DNA from: a virus
Reading direction: 5' to 3' (one strand)
Virus record (IMG/VR): IMGVR_UViG_3300030098_005409
Length of the DNA stretch: 64,000 bases
Part shown: positions 2,361-58,769 of the stretch, piece by piece
Layout: each line of letters starts with the position of its first letter
How positions within the stretch are numbered: the first letter of the stretch is position 1
The notes under the pieces: generated by a model
What the model saw: only the letters and a program-made list of their open reading frames with translations
What the model was told of the DNA's origin: nothing
The model's database searches: none
Translations under genes and position numbers: made by a program

Positions 2361-2368
2361 GATTAGTA

Positions 2369-3169
2369 TTACTCCAGAATATCATATAAACCATCCGACC
2401 GAAGGCGGACATATCCAAGATCTACTAACTCAGAGATGGTCTCGTCCTCCACCTTTACTCCATATGATGAGTCTCTATTCATTTTACTTGATAAACCTAC
2501 ACAAGCTAGGTCTGTTATATGTTGTCCAGTTCGGTAATGAACTCCATCCATATTAGTTATGGCCCAGTTTTTATTAGAAGAAATAACCTTAGAATCATGG
2601 TTTTTAGCTAAATTTGACAAATGAGCTTCCCAATGATACGAATGCACGCCGGTACCCGGCTGTTGATTAATATTTAGCAAGTATTCCCTATTCCATATGG
2701 AGGCGCGAACACAAATTTTTAATTCTGCATCCTGATCAGCACAAATAATATCATATTCCGGAGTTTGTTTTATTACCGAATGGGCTCGGCCTGATGTTCC
2801 TCTCGTTAAATCAACCCTAGCTAAATTAGGGTTGATATGTACATCATATTCATTCAATATTGCTTTGTTAACTGGTCTGATCAAAAATTCATTTTCTTCC
2901 AGCCAAATAAAATAATCATCGTGGATTACATCCGTTAGCATCTGTGTAACATCATCGCTTAGAACCCACGAACCCGGTGGGTTCTGTTTTCCGAGTGAAA
3001 TAAAATTAAAATTACTTGGTAGGTCGAATTCAGGGTGTCTGTCAAACCCTAAGACAGTTACTTCCTTTTCCGGTCCCCAGTGCTTGTTAAAGAGATACGA
3101 AAATATCTTTAATATGTGTACGTATTTATTTGAGGTTGTGACGTAAATTTTTAGTTCATCTGCTTTCAT
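2369..3169 (-). CDS. Putative glycosyltransferase-like protein
   Basis: GT-A-like N-terminus, 'FIWLEENEFL' at the usual DxD position; gene-cluster context. Confidence 0.45.
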   Translation of the reverse strand: MKADELKIYVTTSNKYVHILKIFSYLFNKHWGPEKEVTVLGFDRHPEFDLPSNFNFISLGKQNPPGSWVLSDDVTQMLTDVIHDDYFIWLEENEFLIRPVNKAILNEYDVHINPNLARVDLTRGTSGRAHSVIKQTPEYDIICADQDAELKICVRASIWNREYLLNINQQPGTGVHSYHWEAHLSNLAKNHDSKVISSNKNWAITNMDGVHYRTGQHITDLACVGLSSKMNRDSSYGVKVEDETISELVDLGYVRLRSDGLYDILE

Positions 3170-4074
3170 GAATACTCTCCTTCTTGGTTTTTATCAATAA
3201 TATCCTTTATAAAAGGCCAAATGTTATATTTCTCTAAAACTAAATTCCTTGCATGGTCGATTGCATCTATATTAATTTTTGTTATTGGTCTATCAATTAT
3301 ATCAGAAAACTCTCTAAGAGCTTCAGTCGGATTTTCAATGTTTATTGTATGATAAGATTCCGTAGGATAAAGCTCTTCTATGTTAGGGCACCCCCAATAA
3401 ATAGGCATTGTCCAACATAAAAACGGCTCCCATACTCTAGTACAAAAATTTTTTAACCTACCATTCTCTAGCGAAAGGGAATAATGATAAGGCTGTAATC
3501 CTTCATATTTACATCTTTTAGGGGGACCGGTAAGGGGCAGACCCCCCTTATAAGATGGCCCAAAATCCTCTGCTTTTAAAGTTTTGCCATAAAAATCAAT
3601 TCGATCAGAATGTTGAGCGGCCGCCATTTTAGCAAAATTTAATCTCAGAGACTGACCAAGGGTGAACCTCTTGTTGGTCAATATGCAACTGACACTGTTA
3701 TGCCCTTGGGTGGTGCGTATTTTTTCAGGATATTTCATGTTCTTTAGCTCCGAGAAAGTTTTTTTTACCCACCAGAGTGCATAAGTGTAGTGGTTGTCAT
3801 AAGTGTAGATATGCTTCGCGTACGCGGGGGGCGTATATCGACGGACATGTGTTGGCTCTCTTTGTAAAAAAAAGGTTTTATCTAAATTAAGCCAATTAGG
3901 ATTAAAGCCACTCGGGAGCCCATCTAGGACAAAGCAATACTCCGCGTCGTTAAGATTAGATACTGCTACTATATCTTCCCAGACATATCCCCCATCAGGA
4001 TTTTGGGACCTGCAGTGCTCCAAATACTGCGCTGGGGTTTCCCCCCAGTTGTTAAGAAGAAGGACTTTTTTCAA
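3166..4074 (-). CDS. GT10-like (fucosyltransferase-type) glycosyltransferase
   Basis: 'YHYSLSLENG...WEPFLCWTMPIYWGCPNI' matches the GT10 C-terminal motif. Confidence 0.75.
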   Translation of the reverse strand: MKKVLLLNNWGETPAQYLEHCRSQNPDGGYVWEDIVAVSNLNDAEYCFVLDGLPSGFNPNWLNLDKTFFLQREPTHVRRYTPPAYAKHIYTYDNHYTYALWWVKKTFSELKNMKYPEKIRTTQGHNSVSCILTNKRFTLGQSLRLNFAKMAAAQHSDRIDFYGKTLKAEDFGPSYKGGLPLTGPPKRCKYEGLQPYHYSLSLENGRLKNFCTRVWEPFLCWTMPIYWGCPNIEELYPTESYHTINIENPTEALREFSDIIDRPITKINIDAIDHARNLVLEKYNIWPFIKDIIDKNQEGEYS

Positions 4075-4729
4075 GATATAATCTCACATCCGCGCCATAT
4101 AGGTCATTAAACTTTTTTGATACTCTCTTATTATTTCTTGCCCAGAGAACCAGTTCCTTCTTATACATCTTCGCAAAACTATTCATGTTAGGCAATATAA
4201 AATGTTGTCCTCGGCGCGCACAAAATTTAGAAAAATCCTGTGTAATGGTCTCAAAAAATAAATAATTATCTATTTCTACTTCGTTACCGGCGTCATCTGT
4301 AACAAAATAAGCCTGGGGCTTTAAATGGCCATCAAAAAAGCCATACTCTGCGATTTCATCCAGTAAACACTCAAATCGATCCGGTTCGTTATTCAATAAT
4401 ATAAATTTTTTATCAGCTACAGTATTATAAATGTTCTCGGGTCGATGGCCTCTGAGTACTTCATAGTAAGCAGATACAATCCTCTCTAAAGGGTCTCTTA
4501 AAACAACAAATGTTTCATATTCGTGAAAATTGTCTAGCTTGCAGAGGTCTGAATATGATGTTCTGTATGATCCTTTCATAAGAGGAGACTTCCTGATTGC
4601 AGTGCTAGCGTTTTTCGGGATCACAAAAAATATAACTTTATTAGTATGACTAACCCAACAATAGTCTTTAAGCTTGTTTTCAATTCTTAATCTAAAATTT
4701 TCGTAATCTTTGTTCATTAAAGACTCCAC
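4052..4729 (-). CDS. Sulfotransferase (Sulfotransfer_2-like)
   Basis: 5'-PSB-like 'IPKNASTAIR', 3'-PB-like 'RDPLERIVSAY', 'HLKPQ'. Confidence 0.85.
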   Translation of the reverse strand: MESLMNKDYENFRLRIENKLKDYCWVSHTNKVIFFVIPKNASTAIRKSPLMKGSYRTSYSDLCKLDNFHEYETFVVLRDPLERIVSAYYEVLRGHRPENIYNTVADKKFILLNNEPDRFECLLDEIAEYGFFDGHLKPQAYFVTDDAGNEVEIDNYLFFETITQDFSKFCARRGQHFILPNMNSFAKMYKKELVLWARNNKRVSKKFNDLYGADVRLYLEKSPSS

Positions 4730-5586
4730 TTGTCCTTTTCTTCCCTAAAACGGCGGGCCCAATAACTCATAGTGGATTTATCCAAGCTAGACGTATTAAG
4801 TATTTTATCATACTGATCTATCAAAAAATCCTCTGTTATATCACTCAGATCATCATATACTAATATTGGTAAATCTAGGTAAAAATTAATATTTAGGTGT
4901 CTTGGTATTATAGGAATTGATCCTAAATAAATTGCTTGCCAGACGCGGCCGCAATCAACACCGTTGCCTAGTGGCGAAACCACGTATTTGTGATCATACA
5001 AGTTTTGATAGTACTCACCCATTTTGTTAAAATGGGATGAATTTTCATATTCACTTAAGGGTATATCACACGGCTTTTGTGTAACCCAGTCGTTGTCTTT
5101 AAAGTAATTATATACCTCTCTTCTGTGGCTTGGGTTTGTGTGTATGCCAAAATCTAGGTAAACTAAGTTTTTAAAGTTCTTCTCTACATTGTCTTCATCT
5201 ATAATAGTAAACTCTGGAGAGTCTTTAGCCTCAGCAAATTCTGACGTACCAATCCAAGTTGAGCTTGCTGATCCTAGTGGTATTGATTCTAGGATTGGAT
5301 GATCATAGGTTATATTAATACCGAACCACTTGACAATATTACTCGGTGCATTTCCAAATATTCTTTCATCAATTGGATAATCGCTATGATGTGTTACAAT
5401 TATATACTTGTTTTGCGTGTTTTTTCTGCACTCGTTAAGCAATCCAGCAACAAAATCTGTCTTACTAAACACAATATAGACTCCCGTTTGGTTTGGTAAA
5501 GCCTGTCCTGGTTTGTACACAATATCACATAATGTCTCAAATCTCTCGCCAACAATTCTATCTTGCTGCTCTACAGTACACTTCAT
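4717..5586 (-). CDS. Exostosin/GT47-like glycosyltransferase
   Basis: 'YVVSPLGNGVDCGRVWQAIYLGSIPI' matches the exostosin C-terminal motif. Confidence 0.75.
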   Translation of the reverse strand: MKCTVEQQDRIVGERFETLCDIVYKPGQALPNQTGVYIVFSKTDFVAGLLNECRKNTQNKYIIVTHHSDYPIDERIFGNAPSNIVKWFGINITYDHPILESIPLGSASSTWIGTSEFAEAKDSPEFTIIDEDNVEKNFKNLVYLDFGIHTNPSHRREVYNYFKDNDWVTQKPCDIPLSEYENSSHFNKMGEYYQNLYDHKYVVSPLGNGVDCGRVWQAIYLGSIPIIPRHLNINFYLDLPILVYDDLSDITEDFLIDQYDKILNTSSLDKSTMSYWARRFREEKDKWSL

Positions 5587-6866
5587 TATATTACTCCACT
5601 TAATAGCTGAACATCAACCAAATCTTTTGGCTCTGATCTGTTTTTCTTCATCTGTCGAATTACTTCGGGGCTGGCAAACTTAAGGCCATTATAATAAAAA
5701 TGATTATTTGGGTTAAAGATAATATCATCTTTGTGGTGCTTGTAGTATTTAAGTTCTTCGTTATGACAGTTAATCTCAGTTAGTCCTGTGTCGATGTTGT
5801 CGCCAGCATATAGGAAATCTAAGTCTCTACAGTCACGTAAGCCGTATGCCGCCAGAACTGCGCTCGCGTCAACGCAAAAGTCATCGCGATCGTGGACACT
5901 ATTATTATGCCAGTTCCTGTATTCTTGAAAATAAAATTCAAAGTTTTTAAAATATGTTGGCTTAAGTTGATTTAAAAAATTAATACTATTTTGGTTAAAG
6001 ACGGCGCTAGCGATTCTTATAGTTTCATGGTGATGGTCATTAATGTGAACTGAATGATTTCCAACGTTGTAGAGATCCCTCACGTTTTGCTTTAGGGCCC
6101 TCAGAGTGTCTGGGTCATCAGTCTGCACCAAAAAAACATAAGTCGGGCCCGCAGCATCGTAACACTGCTCAGCCTTAGAATTAACGCCTTGAAAGCCTAC
6201 TTGCCAATTACCTGCCCAGGGCTCCCCGTCGTAAAGTGTTCTAATAAAATTAAAGGGGCCGTATTTATCTAGTGGCACCGCCTTTTCGCACACCACATCA
6301 GTGCTATTTACAATTATTTCTCTTGCTTTCTCAAACTTACAGAGGGCAGTAGGAAACAACGTAATTATAAAAGTGTTATTTTTTAATTTAGCATAATTTA
6401 AAGCCATGGCATCTAAATAAGTTTGGTTTAGGCCGCCTTCCACATATACATCACGATTTTTAAAAAAGTAGTAGCTACAGTCTAATTGCCCAGAATCGGG
6501 AGGAGCCTCATAACATGCTACCATTTTATCATCAAGTATGCTTGATGCAATACGATGAGCACCGTTAAGAGGAGATTTTGTACTCTTATCAACTGGAACA
6601 ATGGATCTGTTCTCATCAAATCCATCTCGTTGAATCGATTCAATAATGTTGTTGAACTCATTAACAAACTTTTCTTTGCTTTGTTTATTAATATCGCCAA
6701 ATTCAGAAAAGTTATTCCAAACTTGCAAGTGCGATAGGTACAGGTCTAAAGGGAACTCACTTTTTACATCTTTATACTTAGCATAATAGTGCTTGGCCGC
6801 TATGTCAAAACGAAATGGTGTTAACAAACTAAGAGCATTGCGGTAGAAAGTATCGTTTTTATTCAT
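5586..6866 (-). CDS. Multidomain protein: ParB/Srx-like, NDK-like and nucleotidyltransferase-like segments
   Basis: 'PLNGAHRIAS'; 'KQNVRDLY...NHSVHIND'; 'DASAVLAAYGLRDCRDLD'. Confidence 0.5.
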   Translation of the reverse strand: MNKNDTFYRNALSLLTPFRFDIAAKHYYAKYKDVKSEFPLDLYLSHLQVWNNFSEFGDINKQSKEKFVNEFNNIIESIQRDGFDENRSIVPVDKSTKSPLNGAHRIASSILDDKMVACYEAPPDSGQLDCSYYFFKNRDVYVEGGLNQTYLDAMALNYAKLKNNTFIITLFPTALCKFEKAREIIVNSTDVVCEKAVPLDKYGPFNFIRTLYDGEPWAGNWQVGFQGVNSKAEQCYDAAGPTYVFLVQTDDPDTLRALKQNVRDLYNVGNHSVHINDHHHETIRIASAVFNQNSINFLNQLKPTYFKNFEFYFQEYRNWHNNSVHDRDDFCVDASAVLAAYGLRDCRDLDFLYAGDNIDTGLTEINCHNEELKYYKHHKDDIIFNPNNHFYYNGLKFASPEVIRQMKKNRSEPKDLVDVQLLSGVI

Positions 6867-15679: not shown

Positions 15680-16999
15680 TCACAAATTTTGTGCGGCGAA
15701 TGTAGCAACTCTTGAACGCTCGCCCTTTAGAAGAGTTACGTGAGCAGCCAACTCAAAGTCTTTAAATTTCTCAACAGCATGAGTCAAGCCGTTCGTAGTA
15801 GCATCTATGTAAACGTTATCAATCTGTTCTACATCGCCCGTCAGCACAATCTTGGTTCCTTCACCAACTCTTGTTATTATAGTCTTTAATTCGTGAGTTG
15901 TCAAGTTTTGTGCCTCATCAATGATAATAAAAGCCTTTCCAATAGAACGACCGCGGATATAAGTGATCGCTTCAATCTCAATCGTGCCCTTCTCCAAGTA
16001 CATGTCAAGCGTAACCTTGTCATTGCCCATTAGAGTCTGAAGATTATCCTGAATCGGCATCAACCAGGGAGACATTTTTTCTTCCATCGTACCCGGTAAG
16101 AAGCCAATGTCCTTTCCTAGCGGCTGTACGGGTCTAGAAACGATTACACGGGTGTAGGTGGATGTTCTCTCGTCTAAGGTCTGTTCAAGGGCCGCAGCGA
16201 TCGCACAGAGCGTCTTACCGCTACCTGCTTTACCAATGGCTGTGATAACCTCAATGTCTGGGTCCATAAGGGCGTCTATCAAAAACGACTGCTCTTTGTT
16301 TCTCGGCTTGATGCCCCACACGCCCCTCTTTTCTTTTCGCAGCTGCCGTACGGGCGTATGTTCATTGATAAATCTTCCCAACGCAGTCTTTTTTTCATTT
16401 GCATTAGAAATAAGCATTACATACTCATTTGTTTTAAGATTAGTGTCTTCGAGATAAACGTCTTTTTTATCATAAAACTGATCTATTATTCCATCATCTA
16501 CTAAAACCTCTGAAAACCCAGTGTATATACTATCGCTATCATCGACAATCTGTTGATTTTGGAAATCCTCACACGGCAGCCCAATAGCATCTGCGGTAAC
16601 TCGCATGTTAATGTCGCGAGAAACAAGAATAACTTTTCTTTCAGATTCTCTTGCGACTGCTCTCGCAGTCGCGATAATAAGATGATCAGGGATCTTAATA
16701 TCTAAATCTTGTGGCAGATCATCTCTGTCTATATCTGCGGCAGATACTGATTTAACAATCCCCAGTCCTTGGCGAATGCGGACACCTTTTTTAAGGTTAC
16801 CCTTAGAGCGAAGTTCGTCCCAAATGCGTATAATCTTCCGCGCCTGGACTCCTACAAGGTCCTGACGCTTCTTGTGTTTGTCAATTTCCTCAAATACTTT
16901 TAAAGGGACATATACATCATTGTTTTTAAAAGCGTATATTGCGTCTGCGTTCGTTAAATAAACACTAGTATCTAACACATAAATCTTCTTACGGCTCAT
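15680..16999 (-). CDS. phoH: PhoH-family protein with N-terminal PIN domain
   Basis: PIN 'YVLDTSV...EEID...DHLI...SRDIN'; Walker A 'GKAGSGKT'; 'RGRS', 'IIDEAQN', 'GDVEQID'. Confidence 0.95.
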   Translation of the reverse strand: MSRKKIYVLDTSVYLTNADAIYAFKNNDVYVPLKVFEEIDKHKKRQDLVGVQARKIIRIWDELRSKGNLKKGVRIRQGLGIVKSVSAADIDRDDLPQDLDIKIPDHLIIATARAVARESERKVILVSRDINMRVTADAIGLPCEDFQNQQIVDDSDSIYTGFSEVLVDDGIIDQFYDKKDVYLEDTNLKTNEYVMLISNANEKKTALGRFINEHTPVRQLRKEKRGVWGIKPRNKEQSFLIDALMDPDIEVITAIGKAGSGKTLCAIAAALEQTLDERTSTYTRVIVSRPVQPLGKDIGFLPGTMEEKMSPWLMPIQDNLQTLMGNDKVTLDMYLEKGTIEIEAITYIRGRSIGKAFIIIDEAQNLTTHELKTIITRVGEGTKIVLTGDVEQIDNVYIDATTNGLTHAVEKFKDFELAAHVTLLKGERSRVATFAAQNL

Positions 17000-17531: not shown

Positions 17532-17763
17532 CTTCATCTGTCTCCGTCCGTGAAAGGAAGTTTCTTTCAATAGCACCGATTGCTTCTTCGGCATATGCCA
17601 GATTTCCAATTGCTGTGGCTATTTCATTTACAACACTTGGGTGCTTAGCAACTCCGATAGGGTTGTTCAAATATAACTCAATAACCGCGATTGCCTCTTG
17701 TCTATCTGCTTCAAAGCGAGCAAGGGTTGCTCGCACTAATTGTTCAGCCATCATATTACTCAT
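17524..17763 (-). CDS. Hypothetical protein
   Basis: GGAG SD upstream of ATG 17763. The ORF-track extension lies inside tRNA-Pro and was discarded. Confidence 0.7.
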   Translation of the reverse strand: MSNMMAEQLVRATLARFEADRQEAIAVIELYLNNPIGVAKHPSVVNEIATAIGNLAYAEEAIGAIERNFLSRTETDEDE

Positions 17764-17782
17764 TTTTTCTCCTATTATAAAA

Positions 17783-17860
17783 TGGTCGGGGCGGTAGGAT
17801 TCGAACCTACGACCCCCTGCTCCCAAAGCAGGTGCGCTAACCAGACTGCGCTACGCCCCG
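17783..17860 (-). tRNA. tRNA-Pro(UGG)
   Basis: CGGGGCG acceptor, anticodon loop TTTGGGA, GGTTCGAATCC, encoded CCA. Confidence 0.95.
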
Positions 17861-18292
17861 AATAATCTCCCATGTTTGATCTGGCAATAACTCAACCTCA
17901 GCCAAGAACTTGCCGGGATCTATTTTAATCCATTGATTGTCAGCTATTAAGGATAAAAAGTAAGTACCATCTTTTCTTTCATATAGAAAGTACTTATTTC
18001 CTATTACCGGCTGGATATTGAAATCTGCTTCGTAAATAATTTTAGACACATCCACTCGTTCTTTTACTTCTTTTACTTGTTCCATAATTAATTCAGCTTG
18101 CTTTCTTAGTTTATCTATTTCTTTTTCAGCATACCTCTCGGCTGCTGAGATGGCACGTCCCTTGATTGAGGACATGTCATTTGGTCTAATCGCGGGCGCT
18201 GCGGTATTCGTTCCATATGGCTTAATATTAGCATCAAATTCTTCTGTTTCATAGTTGTATACAACGTTGTCAGGAAATTTTTCTTTTGACAT
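17837..18292 (-). CDS. Conserved hypothetical protein (DUF2452-like); stop codon lies inside tRNA-Pro
   Basis: 'PVIGNKYFLYE...FLSLI...W'; ends IRGVAQSG*, encoded by tRNA nt 1-24. Confidence 0.7.
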   Translation of the reverse strand: MSKEKFPDNVVYNYETEEFDANIKPYGTNTAAPAIRPNDMSSIKGRAISAAERYAEKEIDKLRKQAELIMEQVKEVKERVDVSKIIYEADFNIQPVIGNKYFLYERKDGTYFLSLIADNQWIKIDPGKFLAEVELLPDQTWEIIRGVAQSG

Positions 18293-18296
18293 TCTC

Positions 18297-18704
18297 TTAC
18301 CATCGATGGTCTTTACCAGACCAGTCCTTAAACTCTTCTTTGCCTCCTCTTACACTCCAATCGGAATCTATTGTTAGTTTTGATGATAGTCCGCCTCTGG
18401 GATTGAAGTCCATTTCTATTCGAAGCCTGTTAGGGTCATAAACACTAATCAAGTCGTCATATACAACATTTATTAATCTTTCGTATGAAAGAAGTCGGTT
18501 TCGAAAATCTTGAAAATATTTTTTCAAAGACTTTAATTCAATAATGGTGTCTTTTGGATAAAAGACAATCCAGGCGGTTGCAAAATCGGGCTGATCTTTA
18601 ACTCCAATAAACGTAATTTCTGGATTTTTAATATTAATCTCATATCCATCCCCTGACGGATTTGGTAGAGTTTTTAGAATTGTTTTATCACTCCACTGTC
18701 TCAT
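18297..18704 (-). CDS. queF: QueF (type II, T-fold) homologue lacking the catalytic Cys
   Basis: 'LPNP', 'PEITF', 'QPDFA', 'IELKSLKKY', 'FRN', 'PRGG'. Confidence 0.8.
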   Translation of the reverse strand: MRQWSDKTILKTLPNPSGDGYEINIKNPEITFIGVKDQPDFATAWIVFYPKDTIIELKSLKKYFQDFRNRLLSYERLINVVYDDLISVYDPNRLRIEMDFNPRGGLSSKLTIDSDWSVRGGKEEFKDWSGKDHRW

Positions 18705-18729
18705 ACTACTAATGCCTCAATATATCTCA

Positions 18730-18805
18730 TGGTGGAGATGACAGGATTCGAACCTGCGACCTGATGCGTGCAAGGCAACTGCTCTCCCAACTGAGCTACA
18801 TCCCC
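18730..18805 (-). tRNA. tRNA-Ala(UGC)
   Basis: Cloverleaf, G3:U70, anticodon TGC, CCA. Confidence 0.95.
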
Positions 18806-18810
18806 ATATA

Positions 18811-18886
<76 letters not shown>

Positions 18887-18899
18887 AAACTATTTGTAT

Positions 18900-18928
18900 A
18901 TTATACAAGATTCACCTTCATAATTCAA
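18900..18928 (-). promoter_or_regulatory. sigma70-like promoter for the tRNA-Thr/Ala unit
   Basis: TTGAAT-17-TATAAT, 13 nt upstream of tRNA-Thr. Confidence 0.6.
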
Positions 18929-18958
18929 TACTATTTTGATAAATAAGTTCTAAGATAT

Positions 18959-19228
18959 CTACTCTGGATCATAAAGATCTTCGTCTTCATATTCGAAGTG
19001 CTCTGGCTCTTCCGTGTAAAGAACAATTGTGTAGAGTCCATTCCAATCAGTTGGAATTAATCTTCTTAAGATTCTTGAATCTTCTCGGGTGTCGGCATGA
19101 ACATACAAAGCCATACCGAGAGTGCTTTGACTGACATCATAAATACCTCTGTCGCCAAATTGAGTAATGGCTTTGAGAATTAGTTCTCGCTTTTCTGCTT
19201 TTGAGAAACGACTCTTTTTACTAGACAC
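18959..19228 (-). CDS. Hypothetical protein
   Basis: ORF track; coupled with its neighbour. Confidence 0.6.
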   Translation of the reverse strand: MSSKKSRFSKAEKRELILKAITQFGDRGIYDVSQSTLGMALYVHADTREDSRILRRLIPTDWNGLYTIVLYTEEPEHFEYEDEDLYDPE

Positions 19229-19416
19229 TAGTTTTTCTTTCTTCTAGTCTTTTTGTGAAGCTTTTCAAATAAAAGCTTTTTCCAAAGTGTTCCCTCTATT
19301 TCTTCTTCAGACATATTCAAAGAATACAAGCCAGCAAGAATCAAACGAATTTCACGATTTGATAGATATACTGTTTTTAAGAACGCTGGAATCTTTTTAT
19401 TGTTCTGGTCTGCCAT
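19228..19416 (-). CDS. Hypothetical protein
   Basis: ORF track; ACTATTTA motif upstream. Confidence 0.6.
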   Translation of the reverse strand: MADQNNKKIPAFLKTVYLSNREIRLILAGLYSLNMSEEEIEGTLWKKLLFEKLHKKTRRKKN

Positions 19417-19471
19417 ATGTGTTTTCTCTGTTTGTTTCTAGTGTAAATAGTTCCTGCAATGGCAAAAACTA

Positions 19472-20086
19472 CTAATCGTTGCTGGCGCGTAATCCCTCTG
19501 AATCCCAGCCGCCTTGCTCCCATTTTTCATTCATTATGTGATTAATCTTATTAAAGTGCATAAATCCCAAAGCGTGCCCGAGTTCGTGTTCGAGCACTGT
19601 TTCTCTTATATCTCGACGCATATAGATTTTAGCATACTGAATTTTATTTGTTAGGTTATCAACGTAAAAATGTGTCTGGGCTAAAGCCTTGTCTTCCATC
19701 GGAACTCCTGACGTTACTAAATGAATGACAACATATCCCACCGGCTCGTCCATCATGCACTTGTTTAAGGGGTCGTGCTTGTACTGGGTTGAAAAGAACC
19801 TATATCCCAAGCGCTTCCAGAAGTTTACAGCCTTAACAATCTGCCTTTGACTTATTGGGGCATGTTCACAAACTATAATCGTTGGCGTAAGACTCCACGT
19901 GGCTACTTGTGATGGGCTGTTATGAACAAGCGGTACCCGCTTATGATTACTATCAAAATCACTTGCTGCTGCAGTTGTGAACAGAAATAGAGAACCGATC
20001 CACAGTGCTATGACAAGCACTATAAACAAACCGGTCCAGTCTAGATGAGAGTGGTTCTTCATACAATATTTAGTTGAAAAAACCAA
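19472..20086 (-). CDS. Matrixin-like (metzincin) peptidase with N-terminal membrane/signal segment
   Basis: 'HELGHALGFMH' (HExxHxxGxxH) followed by Met-turn 'HIM'. Confidence 0.85.
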   Translation of the reverse strand: MVFSTKYCMKNHSHLDWTGLFIVLVIALWIGSLFLFTTAAASDFDSNHKRVPLVHNSPSQVATWSLTPTIIVCEHAPISQRQIVKAVNFWKRLGYRFFSTQYKHDPLNKCMMDEPVGYVVIHLVTSGVPMEDKALAQTHFYVDNLTNKIQYAKIYMRRDIRETVLEHELGHALGFMHFNKINHIMNEKWEQGGWDSEGLRASND

Positions 20087-20588
20087 TTTTATGATAAACG
20101 GTTCCCAAAACTCTTATTGAATTTCCTTCGGGATCTGGCACATACAGAGTCAGCGCTTGATGAGCATCATTAGGTGGGCGCCATATTATCTGCAACGCAT
20201 TAACCTCTGGTTCCCATATAGAGTCAAATTCGTTGCCTATATTATTTTCATAGTGATTGTAACAATTATAATTATTATTAGTAAGACTAGAAATTAAAGT
20301 ATCATGTAAATTATAACCTGAATTAAGAATAATGTCTCTGCCACAGATTGAAAAGAACTGTTTTTCTTCTGTATCTCTTTCAATAGCCAGACTGACAAAT
20401 CCAGAGATAAGATCTGTGTCTAGATTTTTATCGCACCAGAAGAGTAGAGTGTTTGGTCCTTGATTTCTACTCCACCAGCAGTCCATGGTTGCATATTGTT
20501 CTCCATATTCCTCTATTCTAGTATCTTCTTCACCTATATTAGAACAAGAACAAAGCAGAAACAATAAACAAATTACAATCTTATTCAC
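20070..20588 (-). CDS. Putative lipoprotein
   Basis: Signal peptide with lipobox-like 'LLCSC'. Confidence 0.5.
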   Translation of the reverse strand: MNKIVICLLFLLCSCSNIGEEDTRIEEYGEQYATMDCWWSRNQGPNTLLFWCDKNLDTDLISGFVSLAIERDTEEKQFFSICGRDIILNSGYNLHDTLISSLTNNNYNCYNHYENNIGNEFDSIWEPEVNALQIIWRPPNDAHQALTLYVPDPEGNSIRVLGTVYHKIGFFN

Positions 20589-20647
20589 CTTATATTAATT
20601 ATTATTATATTAATATTAATTGTATATTGCAAGCAAAATTTATATTT

Positions 20648-20960
20648 TGGTGGAGGTGGTGGGAATCGAACCCACGTCCAAAGCATATCCAACTTCAAGT
20701 CATTCACAGGTATAGTTTGTTTCTCTAAACAAACAAAGTATCAAATTCGATTCAATCCGCTCAAAAAAGCAAAAGCGTTTTTTTGGTTGTGTTCTTCTTG
20801 GACACCCGGCGAAGAACAACCGGGGATTAAGCAGCTAGTGCTAAACCGTAATCTGCGTCGTTTGCAGTTATATGTTTCTAACTAAAGTTTTATGTGATTG
20901 AGTTAGCTGTCACAACCTGCACTATCCATCTTCCTTACCCTGTCGAAACCTGTCACCCCC
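20648..20960 (-). ncRNA. ssrA: tmRNA, tag ANDADYGLALAA
   Basis: 5' GGGGGTGACAGGTTTCGAC, 3' GGGTTCGATTCCCACCACCTCCACCA with Ala-type G3:U70; resume context ATAACT-GCA; tag codons 20865-20830, then TAA. Confidence 0.95.
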
Positions 20961-20992
20961 TATTTTTATCTTGACAAGCTCAGAGAAATCCT

Positions 20993-21331
20993 TTACTCTT
21001 TGTCTATGCCAAATTTCCTCTTTATATCTATCCACGAACTTGGATTAACGCCCAATATTCTTCTTATCTCTGCATTAGTGTCAGCAACACTAATAACTGC
21101 ATTATACAGAGCTTCCTTAGAAATATCAACTATTTTCGACCAAAGATTAAAGCCGTACAGCTTACCATTAGTAAGCTTTATGGAACACTCTAACTTTAAT
21201 CCTATAACTTCTTCAAGAGTTAAAGCAGATAACATTATTTCAAACGCCTCAGAGGACTTACCTTCCTTGCGTAATGTATTTGATAGTGATTTGTTTCTAC
21301 TAAAACCCTTTTCTATATTAGGGTTTGTCAT
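20993..21331 (-). CDS. Hypothetical protein, possible C-terminal HTH
   Basis: 'NAEIRRILGVNPSSW'. Confidence 0.55.
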   Translation of the reverse strand: MTNPNIEKGFSRNKSLSNTLRKEGKSSEAFEIMLSALTLEEVIGLKLECSIKLTNGKLYGFNLWSKIVDISKEALYNAVISVADTNAEIRRILGVNPSSWIDIKRKFGIDKE

Positions 21332-21334
21332 ATT

Positions 21335-22171
21335 CTACTGTTCTAAAAGTTTGTCTACTAAACTTTCTAAATTAATTTCCATTCCTTCTTCCAACTCAAA
21401 ATCAGGAATGTCTGTCTCAGGTTCGCCTTCTTCTGGTGCAGCCACCGGCTCATCTGGCTGCGCATCTTGTGCTGCTTGTGGCTCCTCTGGGCTCGTCGCC
21501 AACTCTCCTTCAAACTTATCAAAATATAGCGCAAGGTTCTTCAGAAGGTATTCTTCAAACATTTTAATATCATTGGGGTTATCAAGATTATCGTATGCTA
21601 CTAGGATGTTTTTCTCGATATCTTGGAAGTCGTCATATGCCCTGTTACGACCGGTCTTATCTTCACCCTCAATACCAAACTCTTCTCTTTCATCGGGCTC
21701 TTCTGCTGGCTCTTCTACTTTATCTTCAACGTCAATAAACGCTGGATCATCCTCAGGCTTGTCGGAAATAGTTATATCGACATCCTCTTCCACAGCCTCA
21801 ATCTCTTCGTCTTCGCCGGCTTCCTTACGGGACTCTTCAGGTGCAAGAGACATCTCAACAGCATTGAGGATATGGGCTCTATATGAATCTCTCTGTTGCT
21901 TGTCGGTGGTAAGAGACTTATATCCTGTTTCAATAACAGATAATAAGTTAGAGTTCTTAAGAAGATCTTCTAAGGTATTAATGCCTGTACTTTCATGTTT
22001 CGCCACGGACGCAACATTACTCTTCTCGGATAGTAAAGTTCGAATGACAGAACGAAGCTCATTTTCTTCGTTTAATCTTTTTGTTTCTCTTCTACCTAAA
22101 ACGTGGCGAATGGCTTTGCGCACATTCTCACGGAGCATTAGCTCTTCTGCAAATTCTTTACGATCAATCAT
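21335..22171 (-). CDS. Acidic hypothetical protein, probable head-internal protein
   Basis: 'LRENVRKAIR', 'ELRSVIRTLLSE' tag-like helices; very Glu/Asp-rich. Confidence 0.6.
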   Translation of the reverse strand: MIDRKEFAEELMLRENVRKAIRHVLGRRETKRLNEENELRSVIRTLLSEKSNVASVAKHESTGINTLEDLLKNSNLLSVIETGYKSLTTDKQQRDSYRAHILNAVEMSLAPEESRKEAGEDEEIEAVEEDVDITISDKPEDDPAFIDVEDKVEEPAEEPDEREEFGIEGEDKTGRNRAYDDFQDIEKNILVAYDNLDNPNDIKMFEEYLLKNLALYFDKFEGELATSPEEPQAAQDAQPDEPVAAPEEGEPETDIPDFELEEGMEINLESLVDKLLEQ

Positions 22172-22173
22172 TT

Positions 22174-24333
22174 TTAGCCCACCGATATTCCTAGTAAATA
22201 GTCCATTACTTCAGTAACTAGCTCTTCATCTTCTTTAATGAAGTTCTTGGGATGCCTCTTCTTTTTCTTCTCAGAACCGGCCACTTTCGGCGCGCGCATC
22301 CCAAGGGGTAGAGAATAACCAGCGACGTTGCCACCGGCCATTGAAGACATTTCCTCAAGCTTTCCTTGGAGTATATCATATATTTCCTGATTATAAAATC
22401 CCATAATAGCTTCAAAATCTTCTTGAGAGGCACCCTTGAGAGCCTTTCTTAAAGTAGTTCCTGACATCTCACCAAATCCTGGGACATCAATCTCAACGTG
22501 CGGAGCTACTGCGATGTAACCATGCTTGTCAAGCCCCACAAGTTCTTCTCCGGGCCTGTATGTCTTGTAGTAAGCAGGAGTGCCTCTTTTGGTCATGCCG
22601 TCTAGATTGGCAAACCTGGGACTATCACGCATATCTTTGCCGCCAACAGCGAAAACAACAGCCGTTGATTCTGGGTCGAAGTTCTGAGTAAGTTCCACCG
22701 CCTGATATGGGTTCCTGCTCATCACAATCTTATCAGCAGGCACGCCGTGGGCGACCATAATCTTTTTCTTTTCTTCAAAGTCTAGGGGAGACTTAGGACC
22801 CATCTTATTGGAAGTTACGATAAAAGTATTCTCGTCGCCAAATTGATCAGCAAGCGCTTTATAAGTTGCATAATGGTGACGACCCATAGGCTGGAATCGT
22901 CCGGGATAAATGGCGATAACTTTCTTCTGATCTTGTTCATTCAGAGCCCAATTGACTGCCTCAGCCAAAGCAATCTTTACTTGACTTGCCTCACGAACCA
23001 AAGAAGTGATAGGAGCACCGCCAAGAAGGTTTTCATAAAGATCTTGATTCTTATTTATAACAGAGGGGAGATTACGAGACCACTCCAAAAGAGGCTTGGT
23101 CACAGAGAAACCATCAGATCCCCAGTATACAGTAAGACTTTCGGTTTGCTGGAACTTGGCGCCCTTATCAACAGCAAAGTTTGCCTTGCTGAATTCTAGA
23201 CGATCAACAAATTTGACACCGTTACCGATGTGATCAACAGCAACATAACCCTCTGGATTACTTGCGACAAGATCGCCTGAGCCATCGTCAATAAAATGCT
23301 TTGTGTTATACACAGCGTTGTTATACTTGGCGATGAATATATTTTTTGCCTCGAATAGAAGCCGCGAGACTTTGAAAAGGTTGAGGATATCTTCTTGCTT
23401 GCTATCGAAGGCTGCAAGCATTTCTTGACCTTTTTGGGTTGCTCGCATTTTTCCTTTTTCAGACTTTAGCTTATCAATTCTTTTTTCTAGACGACCTGAA
23501 TACCAACGCTTGAAACCTAAGAAAGATTTAGCTGGATCCTCAAGGAATTGACCACCCTTGATTTCAGAGTTAATGTAGATGTTAAGAAGATCCATCGGCA
23601 GACCTTCATAGTCAATCTTTTCATTGACCTGATCCGCGGCTGAAACTAATTCCTTCACCTTTGCTTCTTCATCTTCAGTTAAAGTAACAGTTCCAGTATC
23701 GTCTGTAAAATAAGCATCATCAACCCATACACCGGGAACCTTATTTAGACCACTTACATCAGCGCCGAAAGAAGCGCCACCGTCCAAACTATCATAAGTT
23801 GTATGAAAAACAATACCGAACTTTGATTCAGCGATCTCTTGTCCAAGCTTGGATTCAACTGGTGCGGCATAAGTAATAGTATTTGGCTTGAAAGCATAAT
23901 GAGGCTCGCCATCAACGTCGATGGTGCTAATCATCTCATCGTCAAACATAAAGTCTCCCTGGAGAATCTTTTGGATTCCTAGGGGAGGCAAGTATTGAAG
24001 TGCTTTTGTAAGCTTATCGACCAAACCCGGAGCGTGTCCGTGATTTCTCCGAACATCTTCGGGGGTATAGTTTATCTTTGGTTCTTTATTGAAGATAGAT
24101 TTGGTTCCAACAAAGAACTTACCATTTTCTGGATTAATACCAGCAAAAATAGCCGGCGCGCCATCCCACTTGACAGAGGTCTTTACTCTTGAATCAACAT
24201 TACCTTTTAACTCTTCTAACAACTCAAGCAGAAAAGCCCGAGCCATATCATATCCCTTTGGACCCTGTGTTAAAACAAGCTCTTCCAGGTGAGTTAAGTG
24301 TGTGTTTGCTTTGCCTTCATCCAGAAGAGACAT
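22174..24333 (-). CDS. Ligase-like nucleotidyltransferase domain (DUF6267-type) fused to a cytidylyltransferase-like domain
   Basis: 'VKWDG', 'LQGD', 'PEGYV', 'VKFVD'; then 'YPGRFQPMGRHH' and 'MSGTTLR'. Confidence 0.7.
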   Translation of the reverse strand: MSLLDEGKANTHLTHLEELVLTQGPKGYDMARAFLLELLEELKGNVDSRVKTSVKWDGAPAIFAGINPENGKFFVGTKSIFNKEPKINYTPEDVRRNHGHAPGLVDKLTKALQYLPPLGIQKILQGDFMFDDEMISTIDVDGEPHYAFKPNTITYAAPVESKLGQEIAESKFGIVFHTTYDSLDGGASFGADVSGLNKVPGVWVDDAYFTDDTGTVTLTEDEEAKVKELVSAADQVNEKIDYEGLPMDLLNIYINSEIKGGQFLEDPAKSFLGFKRWYSGRLEKRIDKLKSEKGKMRATQKGQEMLAAFDSKQEDILNLFKVSRLLFEAKNIFIAKYNNAVYNTKHFIDDGSGDLVASNPEGYVAVDHIGNGVKFVDRLEFSKANFAVDKGAKFQQTESLTVYWGSDGFSVTKPLLEWSRNLPSVINKNQDLYENLLGGAPITSLVREASQVKIALAEAVNWALNEQDQKKVIAIYPGRFQPMGRHHYATYKALADQFGDENTFIVTSNKMGPKSPLDFEEKKKIMVAHGVPADKIVMSRNPYQAVELTQNFDPESTAVVFAVGGKDMRDSPRFANLDGMTKRGTPAYYKTYRPGEELVGLDKHGYIAVAPHVEIDVPGFGEMSGTTLRKALKGASQEDFEAIMGFYNQEIYDILQGKLEEMSSMAGGNVAGYSLPLGMRAPKVAGSEKKKKRHPKNFIKEDEELVTEVMDYLLGISVG

Positions 24334-24336
24334 TGT

Positions 24337-24585
24337 TTACTTATCCTTGTTTTCTTCTAATATAGTAACCTGCTCTTCAAGAATGCTAACGCGCTCTTGA
24401 AGACGGCGCATGTGTCGTCTCACTTCTTTAAGACTTTGCCTAGCCATCTCAATCCGTCGCTCGTCAGTGCGGCTACGTGGAGATATATTCTGGAGAACCT
24501 CAGAGATAGACTGAAGATAGCTAGACACACTTGGTCCTTTGCCTTCATTTTGAATAAACTGGCGCGTTAGACGACGAAAGTCCAC
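24337..24585 (-). CDS. Small coiled-coil protein
   Basis: C-terminal heptad pattern. Confidence 0.6.
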   Translation of the reverse strand: MDFRRLTRQFIQNEGKGPSVSSYLQSISEVLQNISPRSRTDERRIEMARQSLKEVRRHMRRLQERVSILEEQVTILEENKDK

Positions 24586-27186: not shown

Positions 27187-28344
27187 TTATCCCTTTACCA
27201 AGAAGCGATCAAATGTGCCCTTAAGATCGGCTAACTTATTTTCCTCTAGATTTCTCATCTTATCTTTTGCGACCGCCGCACGACCGCGACCCTGAGCAAG
27301 ATCTTTGGTTTTTTCAAGCTCTTGTGCCGCAGACCGGTCCGCACTTAGCTCCTCACCGGCTGCAAGCTGCAATTTGTCGTGGTGCTTCTCTGAGGGTAAA
27401 CCAGCCTTCTCGAACTTTTTAAGCATTCTGCGTAGGAGAACAAGATCGTCAAGTGCTGTCAGCGGACCAAGGAATTCAAGACCCATAAAAGTCCCGGCAT
27501 CAACAGGAGAAACGAAATTAAGAATAGCAAAAGCAGCTAAGAGTCGAAGTTTTGTTGGCGTGTCACGGTCGACGCTGGCCATAAACATGGCAGCCAAGTC
27601 GCGCCCACCGGGAAGATTTAGAAGCGCTTTCAAAACTGGGTTGCCTTTAGCTTCCTGTAGATCGCCGGTACCTAGCTTGTCGAGTAGTACATTTAAAACC
27701 TTGTCCTGCTCATCTTCTGGCATTGCTTCAATCGCATCTTCGGCAGTCTCAACTGGGTCTTTTGCCTCATCTAAGTCTTCCTTCTTAGAATCTTCTTTAG
27801 CGGCTTTTCTTGCTTTTTTGTTGGCGGCTTTCTTTTCGTCCTTGGTGGCATCTGGTGGTGTTTTTGCAACCTTAGAAGCTCTACCCATTGCCTCTTGTAG
27901 AGCTTCCTGAAGTTCTGTGTTAGACGACAATATAGACAAAAACTGCTCTCTAACGGCATCAACAATTAGGGCTGCAACCTCATCCGCTTGGTCTTTAATG
28001 ATTTTAGCAAATGCTCTTTGCATGAGTCCTTCAATTACATCTCCGTCAAATGGGATATCTGGCACAATCTTGGAGGCAATATCGTCTGCGTTCTCAATAA
28101 GGTGCGATTCTATCTGACGCGCAGCAATTCGTAAGAACAAACCAGCTGCAGCGTCCAGTACTGCTCCAGCGCTAGTGTTCTTAAAGGTTTCACTAGCAGC
28201 ATACCTCAGTGGCTCTTTAAAGTCCCCTATGTTTTTTAGTACGCCCTTTGCAGTAGCGGTTAAACTATTTTCGTTTTTCAACTCTTCCGAGACCATTTGT
28301 GCTATTTGGTCGATTATTCTTTTGTCCATGGTGGATTCTCCCAT
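27187..28344 (-). CDS. Tagged multidomain protein with a YkvA/DUF1232-like hydrophobic segment
   Basis: 'IIDQIAQMVSEEL'; 'AILNFVSPVDA...LDDLVLL'; repeated L-x-E sites. Confidence 0.55.
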   Translation of the reverse strand: MGESTMDKRIIDQIAQMVSEELKNENSLTATAKGVLKNIGDFKEPLRYAASETFKNTSAGAVLDAAAGLFLRIAARQIESHLIENADDIASKIVPDIPFDGDVIEGLMQRAFAKIIKDQADEVAALIVDAVREQFLSILSSNTELQEALQEAMGRASKVAKTPPDATKDEKKAANKKARKAAKEDSKKEDLDEAKDPVETAEDAIEAMPEDEQDKVLNVLLDKLGTGDLQEAKGNPVLKALLNLPGGRDLAAMFMASVDRDTPTKLRLLAAFAILNFVSPVDAGTFMGLEFLGPLTALDDLVLLRRMLKKFEKAGLPSEKHHDKLQLAAGEELSADRSAAQELEKTKDLAQGRGRAAVAKDKMRNLEENKLADLKGTFDRFLVKG

Positions 28345-28351
28345 ATGTTAA

Positions 28352-29335
28352 TTAGTCTTTTTTCTTTTGTAATCGTTTAGTTTTTTCTTTTGATGCTTCT
28401 TTTCTTTTCTCAGCGTGATCAAGAACTTTCTTCAATCTGGCTTTGGTCTTAGGGTCCTTAGCATTCTGATAGGCAGCCCGTACACGCTGATGGATAAGAT
28501 TAATAATCTGTGACTGACGCTTGTGAGACTTTGATTTGAAGGATTTCTTTGATAAGGTATCCTTTACATCTTGAACTGTTCGGAACTTTACTGACACTGT
28601 ATCACTTGGATCCTCGTCGGTGTAAAGTCTGCGTCCTGAACCTTTTGGTTTCTTGCCAGTTCCAGTCTTAGGATCCTTACCTTCTTCGGCCTTGATACAA
28701 TTTCTGTACGTCTTGCCGTACATCTTCTTAGTTTTGCGTTTGGGGTGAGTTTTATAACCCTTCTGGCAACGTTCTTGCAGTCCATCAGGCTCCATATATG
28801 GATGATCTTTAAGATACTTTTTCATCTTAGGTGCTGGTTCAATCCCAGCTTCTTGAAGTTTATTCGCCCACATAGACAGCATTGTCTCACGTATTTCCTC
28901 ATCTCCCCGGACAAAGTTTGCTTTTATGCCTGCTTCTTTGGCCGCCGCAATCTCTTCTTCGTCATCATCCCAATGTTCGATAACACCAAGAGATAAAAGA
29001 GTTTCAGCTTTCAAATCTCCATTTGTGTAGTGGATAGACTTGACGGGAAGATTCATACCGGCAACCAACTCTTCTGGCTCTGGTGCTGTATCCCATGGAT
29101 ACTTGTCTCCTGTGCGTTTCGATCGGGAAGTAACAATATAAACAGTTTCACCGGCAGCTGCGAGTTCTCTTAGTTTGGCGATGTTCTCTTCGTGGGGCTT
29201 GTCGTATATGGTGCTGAATTCAGGATCTTCAGGATCTGTCTTATACTTGATAAGTGTCTCGTCATAATCAAACGAGTAAGCGCCTTTCTTTTCTTCGTTT
29301 AGGAAGTTCTTCCAGTTTTCAAGTAGGAGTTTCAT
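28352..29335 (-). CDS. Tagged protein: HAD-like phosphatase domain plus basic C-terminal domains
   Basis: 'MKLLLENWKNFLNE'; HAD motifs 'FDYDETL', 'IVTSR', 'K', 'HWDDD'. Confidence 0.7.
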   Translation of the reverse strand: MKLLLENWKNFLNEEKKGAYSFDYDETLIKYKTDPEDPEFSTIYDKPHEENIAKLRELAAAGETVYIVTSRSKRTGDKYPWDTAPEPEELVAGMNLPVKSIHYTNGDLKAETLLSLGVIEHWDDDEEEIAAAKEAGIKANFVRGDEEIRETMLSMWANKLQEAGIEPAPKMKKYLKDHPYMEPDGLQERCQKGYKTHPKRKTKKMYGKTYRNCIKAEEGKDPKTGTGKKPKGSGRRLYTDEDPSDTVSVKFRTVQDVKDTLSKKSFKSKSHKRQSQIINLIHQRVRAAYQNAKDPKTKARLKKVLDHAEKRKEASKEKTKRLQKKKD

Positions 29336-56900: not shown

Positions 56901-56967
<67 letters not shown>

Positions 56968-56977
<10 letters not shown>

Positions 56978-57279
56978 GCGGGGGGTGCAATCACACCCGG
57001 AGGAACTTCTCCTTCCACGAGGCCGCCATGCTTTACAATAACATTAGTAACAATATCAACAGGGACATATCCATAGACTGTGCGTGTAGGTTCCGCCGGA
57101 GATTCCGCCCAGGGCATAAGAAGCGGCTCTTCCTCAGACGGGAACCCAACCTCGACAAGATTATATTTCTTTTGCTCATTCAGTCGAGGCTCGCAATATG
57201 CGTTTTCGTTCGCCTGAACCGACATTTCAAAACCGTCGGCGCACAGGACTTGCTCGTTCAATTTTCTTCTTCCTAACAT
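56968..57279 (-). CDS. Conserved hypothetical phage protein; stop codon lies inside tRNA-Arg
   Basis: 'CADGFEMSVQA...YCEPR...VEVGFPS...TVYGYVP'. Confidence 0.7.
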
Positions 57280-57305: not shown

Positions 57306-57382
57306 TGGCTGGGGCGGTTGGATTCGAACCAACAACCTCCGGGGTAACAACCCGGCGTCCTTGCCAATAGGACCTCGCCCCA
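57306..57382 (-). tRNA. tRNA-Asn(GUU), non-canonical body
   Basis: TGGGGCG/CGCCCCA acceptor, G73, anticodon loop TTGTTAC, A8/U14, CCA. Confidence 0.85.
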
Positions 57383-57383
57383 A

Positions 57384-57460
57384 TGGTGGGATAGGCGGGA
57401 CTTGAACCCGCGACCGGCGCTTTATAAGAACGCTACTCTGACCTACTGAGTTACTATCCC
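57384..57460 (-). tRNA. tRNA-Ile(UAU)
   Basis: GGGATAG acceptor, anticodon loop CTTATAA, A73, CCA. Confidence 0.9.
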
Positions 57461-57751: not shown

Positions 57752-57826
57752 TGGCTCCGGTGGCTGGACTCGAACCAACAACCATCCGATTAACAGTCGG
57801 ATGCTCTACCATTGAGCTACACCGGA
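57752..57826 (-). tRNA. tRNA-Asn(GUU), canonical
   Basis: TCC...GGAGCCA, anticodon loop CTGTTAA. Confidence 0.95.
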
Positions 57827-57946: not shown

Positions 57947-58032
57947 TGGTAGCGCGGGCGGGACTCGAACCCGCAAGGTCTAAGACCGGCAGATTTTAAG
58001 TCTGCTGTGTATACCGATTCCACCACCGCGCC
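57947..58032 (-). tRNA. tRNA-Leu(UAA)
   Basis: Long variable arm, anticodon loop CTTAAAA, A73, CCA. Confidence 0.92.
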
Positions 58033-58693: not shown

Positions 58694-58769
58694 TGGTGAA
58701 CCCCCTGGGACTCGAACCCAGAACCAATGGATTAAAAGTCCAGTGCTCTACCTGTTGAGCTAGGGGTCC
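58694..58769 (-). tRNA. tRNA-Lys(UUU)
   Basis: Anticodon loop CTTTTAA, CCA; own promoter upstream. Confidence 0.93.

Follow-up and report, generated by a model that had tools for sequence, protein, structure and literature searches.

Known departures from the U8-A14 pair

Guy et al. (2014; PMC4117946) describe the U8-A14 pair as virtually universal among tRNAs. Among the substitutions at positions 8 and 14 scored in the yeast suppressor SUP4oc, A8-G14 was the sole functional replacement of U8-A14, eight others being non-functional (PMC4117946). In the tRNA-Sec of Aquifex aeolicus, a G14:C21:U8 triple takes the place of U8:A14 (PMC3711452). The modified residue s4U8 is both a near-UV sensor and a stability mark, and has been found on a phage tRNA with U8 (PMC8829951, PMC4041423, PMC13191261).

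The tRNA considered here is a phage tRNA-Asn(GUU) in which A8 replaces U8; in the literature, no paper describing this variant tRNA-Asn family was found, nor anything for "A8-U14". The variant resembles SUP4oc A8-G14, where U8 can give way to A8 with function kept if position 14 is also changed (PMC4117946), but that molecule is an engineered suppressor in which 14 is unpaired with 21 and no 14:21 pair was added. With tRNA-Sec the variant shares a Watson-Crick 14:21 pair that extends the D stem, and the docking of residue 8, solved in tRNA-Sec, would be expected here as well. The D stem of tRNA-Sec, however, is 6 bp long and its loop 4 nt, and the molecule is further marked by 8/5 acceptor/T geometry, a long extra arm, a triple of 15:20a:48, the UCA anticodon and U8. 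In the variant, the predicted D stem has 5 bp and its loop 7 nt, the geometry is 7/5, the variable loop is 5 nt long, and the corresponding elements are A15-U48, A8 and GUU. The marks by which a tRNA-Sec is recognized (8/5 or 9/4 geometry, 6-bp D stem with 4-nt loop, long arm, UCA) are thus absent from the variant. The U8-A14 reverse-Hoogsteen pair with A21 is absent too, the bases being A8, U14 and A21 and position 14 covarying with 21.

The variant tRNA-Asn gene and its neighbours

The window, that is, the whole 64,000-nucleotide stretch analysed, is phage DNA. Its PHROG matches include PhoH-like, PrkA-like and other phage families, mostly of unknown function, and the protein identity to its closest cultured relatives is at most 34%. 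Ten RNA genes were detected by ARAGORN, including one minus-strand tRNA cluster; the tRNA array reads A/U-ending codons, and a tmRNA is also encoded. The phage tmRNA lies at 20648-20960 on the minus strand and specifies the tag peptide ANDADYGLALAA. The surroundings of the variant gene are as follows, the tRNA genes being ARAGORN assignments.

58694-58769, minus strand: tRNA-Lys(UUU)
57947-58032, minus strand: tRNA-Leu(UAA)
57752-57826, minus strand: canonical tRNA-Asn(GUU) with U8, A14, A21 and the anticodon loop CUGUUAA; Rfam 74 bits
57715..57743, minus strand: promoter-like site TTGACA-17-TAATAT with TG, from a consensus scan only; upstream of a small ORF and the Ile-Asn pair
57384-57460, minus strand: tRNA-Ile(UAU), one base upstream of the variant tRNA-Asn; the pair of Ile and variant Asn is intact in the relative G001
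57306..57382, minus strand: variant tRNA-Asn(GUU), 77 nt with the encoded CCA (57306-57308); ARAGORN, Rfam, and a cloverleaf as minimum-energy fold
56968-57279, minus strand: small ORF found in 12 viral contigs (37-69% identity), unassigned to any family in Pfam or PHROG; its 3' end extends into the 5'-terminal bases of tRNA-Arg
56901-56977, minus strand: tRNA-Arg(UCU)

The promoter consensus scan gave 8 sites in the region against 2.6 expected, and the window ORFs neighbouring the variant tRNA had no Pfam match. The copy at 57752-57826 bears out the first-pass annotation, which had placed a canonical tRNA-Asn 370 bp away; the variant is a second tRNA-Asn and, as had been stated, is not needed for supply.

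ARAGORN assigned 57306-57382 (minus strand) to tRNA-Asn(GTT), and Rfam RF00005 matched it over its full length (model positions 1-71) with 61.2 bits against a cut-off of 29. Read 5' to 3', the molecule is UGGGGCG A8 G9 GUCC U14 AUUGGCA A GGAC G CCGGG UUGUUAC CCCGG AGGUU GUUGG UUCGAAU CCAAC CGCCCCA G73 CCA. The bases reported earlier (anticodon GUU, U1-A72, G2-C71, G3-C70, G73, A8, U14, A15 and U48) were all read in the reverse complement. The minimum-energy fold of the window's own variant is a cloverleaf with a five-pair D stem, and its parts are assigned as follows.

57375, minus strand: A8, replacing the near-universal U8 (from the sequence); G9 is next, at 57374
57369..57373, minus strand: predicted 5' strand of the D stem, G10 U11 C12 C13 U14 (U14 at 57369); RNAalifold and minimum-energy fold
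57362..57368, minus strand: predicted 7-nt D loop AUUGGCA with A15, G18, G19, C20 and the invariant A20a; conservation in relatives
57357..57361, minus strand: predicted 3' strand of the D stem, A21 G22 G23 A24 C25 (A21 at 57361, pairing with U14); 14:21 covariation
57339..57355, minus strand: anticodon arm CCGGG-UUGUUAC-CCCGG, with the anticodon GUU at 57346-57348; sequence and Rfam
57317..57333, minus strand: canonical T arm GUUGG-UUCGAAU-CCAAC; Rfam and alignment of relatives
57309, minus strand: discriminator G73

The elbow set (G18, G19, U54, U55, C56, A58 and G53-C61) is complete in the variant and invariant in 92 relatives. In the anticodon loop the variant has U32 and C38, and the window's canonical copy C32 and A38.

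Relatives and distribution

A search of IMG/VR with the downstream ORF (56968-57279) gave 12 related loci. In the two closest by this flanking gene, L001 and L003, the variant tRNA is missing, and tRNA-Ile is followed either directly by the ORF or by a 75-nt insert. The insert, at 2904-2981 of L001 (the closest full-length relative), sits exactly at the place of the variant tRNA, with "CTACCAATTT" repeated on its flanks; it was rejected as a tRNA-like element, having no Rfam match and a fold z-score of -0.4. Because the variant is missing from the closest flanking-gene relatives, it is dispensable or mobile. The tRNA-Ile (57384-57460, anticodon UAU), which would read AUA without lysidine, adjoins the same ORF in both L001 and L003.

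In another viral record, IMGVR_UViG_3300030109_004085, the same tRNA-Ile is followed after one base by a variant tRNA-Asn, with a canonical tRNA-Asn upstream and different genes downstream; this variant carries a single C6-to-U change that preserves the pair. An anticodon-arm pattern scan added 8 more contigs. Pattern scanning further yielded contigs from marine metagenomes, at least 119 in number and belonging to TARA, JGI and ENA "marine metagenome" records; among these the invariance of A8 is partly by construction, A8 being in the pattern. With position 8 or the anticodon arm unconstrained, 37 and 59 viral contigs, respectively, were recovered. The 92 distinct A8 relatives come from more than 150 viral and marine metagenome contigs; as the patterns used to gather the family fixed parts of the molecule, the invariance of acceptor positions 1-5 is likewise partly by construction.

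Among GenBank phages, neither the window tRNA nor the commonest family member had a full-length BLAST match, and the only partial ones were to actinophage tRNA-Asn. BLAST against E. coli genomes gave no match to the variant, and an exact 44-mer of it is absent from IMG/VR. In 185,579 species genomes scanned, a single 10-kb contig carried the variant tRNA, within a Marinimicrobia MAG; it was rejected as a host copy, its gene order being the same as that of the phage contigs. Since there is no full-length match in cultured phages or E. coli and the sole MAG contig has phage gene order, the variant tRNA-Asn family is viral, marine and uncultured.

In the window and at about 23 other places (29 loci, several of which overlap on the same contig), the variant has a canonical tRNA-Asn no more than about 2 kb away, so that two Asn tRNAs are repeatedly kept together. 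The tRNAs of other isotypes that accompany the variant at the family loci had U8/A14 in all but three mis-parsed entries of a first survey.

Two near-identical phage contigs carry a form with another anticodon (L198:750-824 and L216:9010-9084, both minus strand). Their tRNAs have the scaffold of A8 and a five-pair D stem, differ from each other only at position 36, so that one anticodon is GUG (His) and the other GUA (Tyr), and share U38 and the 3' end CGCCCC-GCCA, in which A72 is lost. They represent either rapid anticodon switching within a G34-U35 tRNA group or a decaying side branch. A separate tRNA-like gene of 94 nt, with a UGGGGGG acceptor and a long extra arm, is present at L035/L036 (G004, i.e. 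IMGVR_UViG_3300025096_000001, about 80558-80651); its anticodon loop is CUGUUUC (GUU, but with U37), ARAGORN calls it Asn, and it scores 42.7 bits in Rfam.

A rebuilt tRNA core

In the alignment of the 92 distinct A8 sequences (A3), standard pairs occupy 99.4% of the cloverleaf cells, two-sided changes occur in ten pairs, and compensation is seen in all four stems. The observed covariation was reached by 0 of 500 shuffles, and no slid register comes near it. Where the anticodon stem was left free, compensatory forms such as UCGGG/CCCGA, CCCGG/CCGGG and CCAGG/CCUGG appeared. Across the 92 sequences, G53-C61, U54, U55, C56 and A58 are invariant, with covariation at 50:64 and 51:63 of the T stem; where the D arm was unconstrained, no variation was seen in G18, G19 and the final A of the loop.

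A decaying pseudogene or tRNA-like remnant, which the first-pass annotation would have recognized by the absence of the variant from relatives, might account for the lack of the gene in the nearest flanking-gene relatives and for the small clade of L198 and L216, with its changed 3' end and its anticodons GUG and GUA. Against the 99.4% pairing in 92 distinct sequences, the compensatory changes and the invariant tertiary-interaction bases, decay is extremely unlikely.

The departure from U8-A14 noticed earlier is real, A8 being present in 92 distinct relatives, but its proposed nature has to be revised. It had been described as an inverted reverse-Hoogsteen pair, U8-A14 having become A8-U14, with A15-U48 as compensation, and the window sequence alone, with A at 8 and U at 14, would fit this description. 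Among the relatives, however, A8 is invariant and position 14 is occupied by C (72 sequences), U (18) or G (2), covarying not with 8 but with 21. In scans that left positions 14 and 21 unconstrained, the 14:21 combination was C-G in 72, U-A in 13, G-C in 2 and U.U in 5 distinct sequences, without any one-sided change, and the five U.U exceptions all have C15. A15-U48 is common to the A8 and the U8/A14 members of the family, and is therefore not compensatory for the change at 8 and 14. These observations leave the inverted pair very improbable.

The pairing of 14 with 21 is seen in several contexts. Watson-Crick switches of 14:21 occurred in at least three sequence backgrounds, namely U-A in the window's GUCC/GGAC group, G-C nested inside it, and U-A again in the GCGC/GCGC group, and about 8 changes of 14:21 were counted on a weak tree, versus 19 with shuffled labels. 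RNAalifold, unprompted, paired columns 10-14 with 22-26, giving a five-pair D stem. The covariation of 14 with 21 under a fixed A8 argues for a D stem of five pairs closing a 7-nt loop, in which U14 of the window is predicted to pair with A21, not with A8.

When position 8 was left free in the pattern scans, A8 was found only with a paired 14:21 and a 9-nt D region, and U8 only with A14/A21. As the U8 members of the family have A14, A21 and a D region one base shorter, the change came as a package of A8, a position 14 paired to 21, and one added base. The core is thus rebuilt in three linked ways: U8 replaced by A8, A14 replaced by a base in Watson-Crick pairing with 21, and an invariant A20a added. 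Other parts stay standard, namely the 7/5 acceptor/T geometry, G18 and G19, the T loop, the Levitt pair A15-U48 and the variable loop of 5 nt. A8 probably docks on the 14:21 pair, in its groove; since A8 stays constant while 14:21 changes, any such contact is not base-specific. By analogy with bacterial tRNA-Sec, A8 may form a base triple there and fill the layer otherwise occupied by U8-A14-A21.

Compensation in all stems, together with canonical T and D loops, argues strongly that the gene encodes a tRNA-Asn of the ribosome type, under selection and with five pairs in its D stem, and we consider this assignment likely. Such a molecule would be a functional phage elongator tRNA, belonging to a large uncultured marine phage family and reading AAC/AAU as asparagine.

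Amino acid identity and charging

Of 87 distinct sequences gathered with the anticodon unconstrained, 85 retain GUU, and all 85 have C38. In E. coli, the AsnRS identity set consists of G34, U35 and U36 plus the discriminator G73. The variant has the anticodon G34 U35 U36 together with G73, which we take to be the complete set of AsnRS identity elements. Much of the remaining molecule is also that of canonical bacterial and phage tRNA-Asn(GUU), the shared features being the 7-bp acceptor, U1-A72, G73, GUU, U33, A37, G46, the 5-nt variable loop, G18 and G19, and the T arm; the variant differs from the canonical form in A8, Watson-Crick 14:21, the extra D-region base, U32/C38 and G2-G5.

A likeness to tRNA-Gln had been pointed out in the first-pass annotation, which raises the alternative of a recruited tRNA-Gln with a changed anticodon that is seen by the Gln machinery and puts Gln or Glu at Asn codons. 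The likeness is partly real. The UGGGGY. acceptor, ACCGG at 26-31 and U32 match E. coli tRNA-Gln, and with glnV and glnU the variant shares U1-A72, G2-C71, G3-C70, G73, G10, the anticodon stem CCGG., U32 and a 7-nt D loop. However, U1-A72 and G73 also occur in the window's canonical tRNA-Asn and in E. coli asnT, so that, compared with E. coli tRNA-Gln, only G2-G5 and the 26-32 stretch (ACCGG at 26-31, and U32) remain as Gln-like parts of the variant, and canonical-core phage tRNA-Asn elsewhere also start with UGGGG. The D-loop stretch GGCAAGG, taken earlier as a tRNA-Gln feature, is GGUAAGG in E. coli tRNA-Gln and varies within the family itself (GGCAGGU, GGAAAGG, GGCACGG). E. coli tRNA-Gln further has a YUG anticodon, U8 and three D-stem pairs with an A13.A22 mismatch, whereas the variant has GUU, A8 and five predicted pairs, and the two T arms are unrelated.

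Recognition by GlnRS involves G36 as an identity element. The anticodons of E. coli tRNA-Gln end in this base, whereas the variant has U36, and its GUU anticodon does not fit the YUG (U35, G36) of tRNA-Gln. Over the whole molecule, identity to Gln tRNAs is 0.69-0.74; in a comparison with about 500 tRNAs, those for Asn, Met or Pro score no lower, so that Gln is not set apart and the origin proposed earlier gains no support. With the AsnRS set also entirely present, a recruited tRNA-Gln is highly unlikely.

The redundancy with a canonical tRNA-Asn in many phages would also suit a non-ribosomal aminoacyl carrier, charged with Asn or Asp and handing the residue to a phage enzyme; Mom or Fem enzymes, for example, use Gly-tRNA. 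Non-proteogenic tRNAs are recognized by a degenerate T loop or weak T stem and by a linked gene for a tRNA-dependent transferase. In the variant, T stem and T loop are fully canonical with an invariant G53-C61, and GUU is maintained although the anticodon stem changes. The conserved neighbours with a family match are PIN-PhoH, cytidylyltransferase-like, HNH, PD-(D/E)XK nuclease and a weak enoyl-CoA-hydratase-like PHROG match; no aminoacyl-transferase-like gene is among them, and four further neighbours had no match at all. A carrier role is therefore improbable. The canonical T arm also speaks against the decoy function considered in the first-pass annotation.

Judged from its sequence, this tRNA-Asn might be charged directly by AsnRS, through G34 U35 U36 and G73, or indirectly by ND-AspRS and GatCAB, through U1-A72. 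Substrates of GatCAB in the indirect Asn pathway have U1-A72 and no supernumerary 20A base, and an extra base at 20A cuts the efficiency of GatCAB about 7-fold (PMC1635274). The variant has U1-A72 and also one extra base between G19 and G22 (A20a), the predicted 14:21 pairing leaving a 7-nt loop. Because an extra 20A base lowers GatCAB efficiency, the indirect route may be disfavoured instead of used.

A8 in other phage tRNAs

The first-pass annotation had suggested a search of phage tRNAs for A8/U14, and A8 with a paired 14:21 does occur sporadically elsewhere, including in the cultured mycobacteriophage Tonenili. A generic A8 scan found the combination in unrelated phage tRNAs for Thr(UGU), Met(CAU) (several), Arg(CCU) and Arg(GCG), and in a second lineage of tRNA-Asn, whose UCC acceptor is ordinary; exceptions have A8 alongside A14 and A21 or C21. 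One array of 34 tRNAs (L231, IMGVR_UViG_3300037714_000266, 1338-5986) has A8 in eight of them (Asn, Asp, two Arg, three Thr and Gly), some with a paired 14:21.

In four cultured phages, U8 was present in 53 of 62 tRNAs. Mycobacterium phage Tonenili (L250, NC_031080.1, about 17700-24400) has A8 in three annotated tRNAs. The one for Ile(GAU) combines it with C14:G21 and a D loop of 5 nt, the one for Trp(CCA) has the acceptor UGGGGUG, and the third is Tyr(GUA). In Klebsiella phage FBKp34, a single tRNA has G8, together with U14:A21. As A8 or G8 tRNAs are found in unrelated phage arrays, the lack of U8 recurs in the tRNA arrays of phages, though as a minor trait.

In 428 non-family phage tRNAs, a sample partly enriched in A8 by the scan itself, 14:21 was Watson-Crick in 6 of 20 A8 cases (plus 4 with U.G) versus 31 of 403 U8 cases (Fisher p = 0.005). 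An absolute rule that A8 requires a paired 14:21 was rejected, with just 6 of the 20 non-family A8 cases being Watson-Crick. The tendency of non-U8 to occur with a paired 14:21 may nevertheless serve as an annotation rule, by which odd phage tRNAs would be taken as functional and not as pseudogenes.

Possible reasons for a second tRNA-Asn

Phage T5 and its relatives encode counter-defence tRNAs, which are duplicates of host tRNA species with altered anticodon loops, carried beside the ordinary supply. Whereas these T5-type tRNAs are changed in the anticodon loop, the marine variant is changed in the core as well; we know of no cognate nuclease for it. The variant may be kept beside a canonical tRNA-Asn if its body escapes something that acts on ordinary tRNA-Asn, which is proposed because no s4U8 is possible in it, the D region has an extra base, and positions 32 and 38 of the anticodon loop are changed. 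Its retention may reasonably be explained by escape from some host or phage factor, but this is much less certain than its assignment as a selected, ribosome-type tRNA-Asn.

Put more specifically, A8 with a Watson-Crick 14:21 could be an alternative, phage-favoured core, in which a layer of 8, 14 and 21 like that of tRNA-Sec is set into an elongator tRNA of otherwise ordinary build. It would be kept because the tRNA neither depends on, nor is seen by, some host factor recognizing U8/s4U8 or the D region; this is a tentative and rather doubtful suggestion. Candidate factors would be ThiI-dependent quality control, near-UV cross-linking of s4U8 to C13 in sunlit water, GatCAB, a defence nuclease directed at tRNA-Asn, or the phage's own PIN-PhoH RNase. 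If the suggestion holds, each of the two Asn tRNAs would have a role of its own in infection.

Whatever the reason for its retention, the family is a natural and abundant one that replaces U8-A14 in a defined, covarying way, and the same solution recurs in other phage tRNAs. It may thus provide a natural test set for the tolerance of the tRNA core to the loss of U8, and hence of s4U8. Canonical and variant tRNA-Asn in one phage would also be a concrete pair on which ideas of counter-defence, UV sensing and direct versus indirect Asn charging could be examined.

In 71 of 157 loci, the variant tRNA-Asn is followed, about 1.1 kb further downstream, by a gene for PIN-PhoH, a PhoH2-like RNA helicase/RNase (PF13638 and PF02562; e.g., L079:1676-3010, minus strand). 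This proximity may be plain synteny of one abundant lineage. The window's copy, of the same PHROG family, lies at 15680-16999 (minus strand), about 0.8 kb from tRNA-Pro (17783-17860). Another ORF of the window, at 28352-29335 (minus strand), matches polynucleotide kinase weakly in PHROG (E = 1e-8) and nothing in Pfam; with its unannotated neighbour at 27187-28344, it could form a candidate RNA-repair pair.
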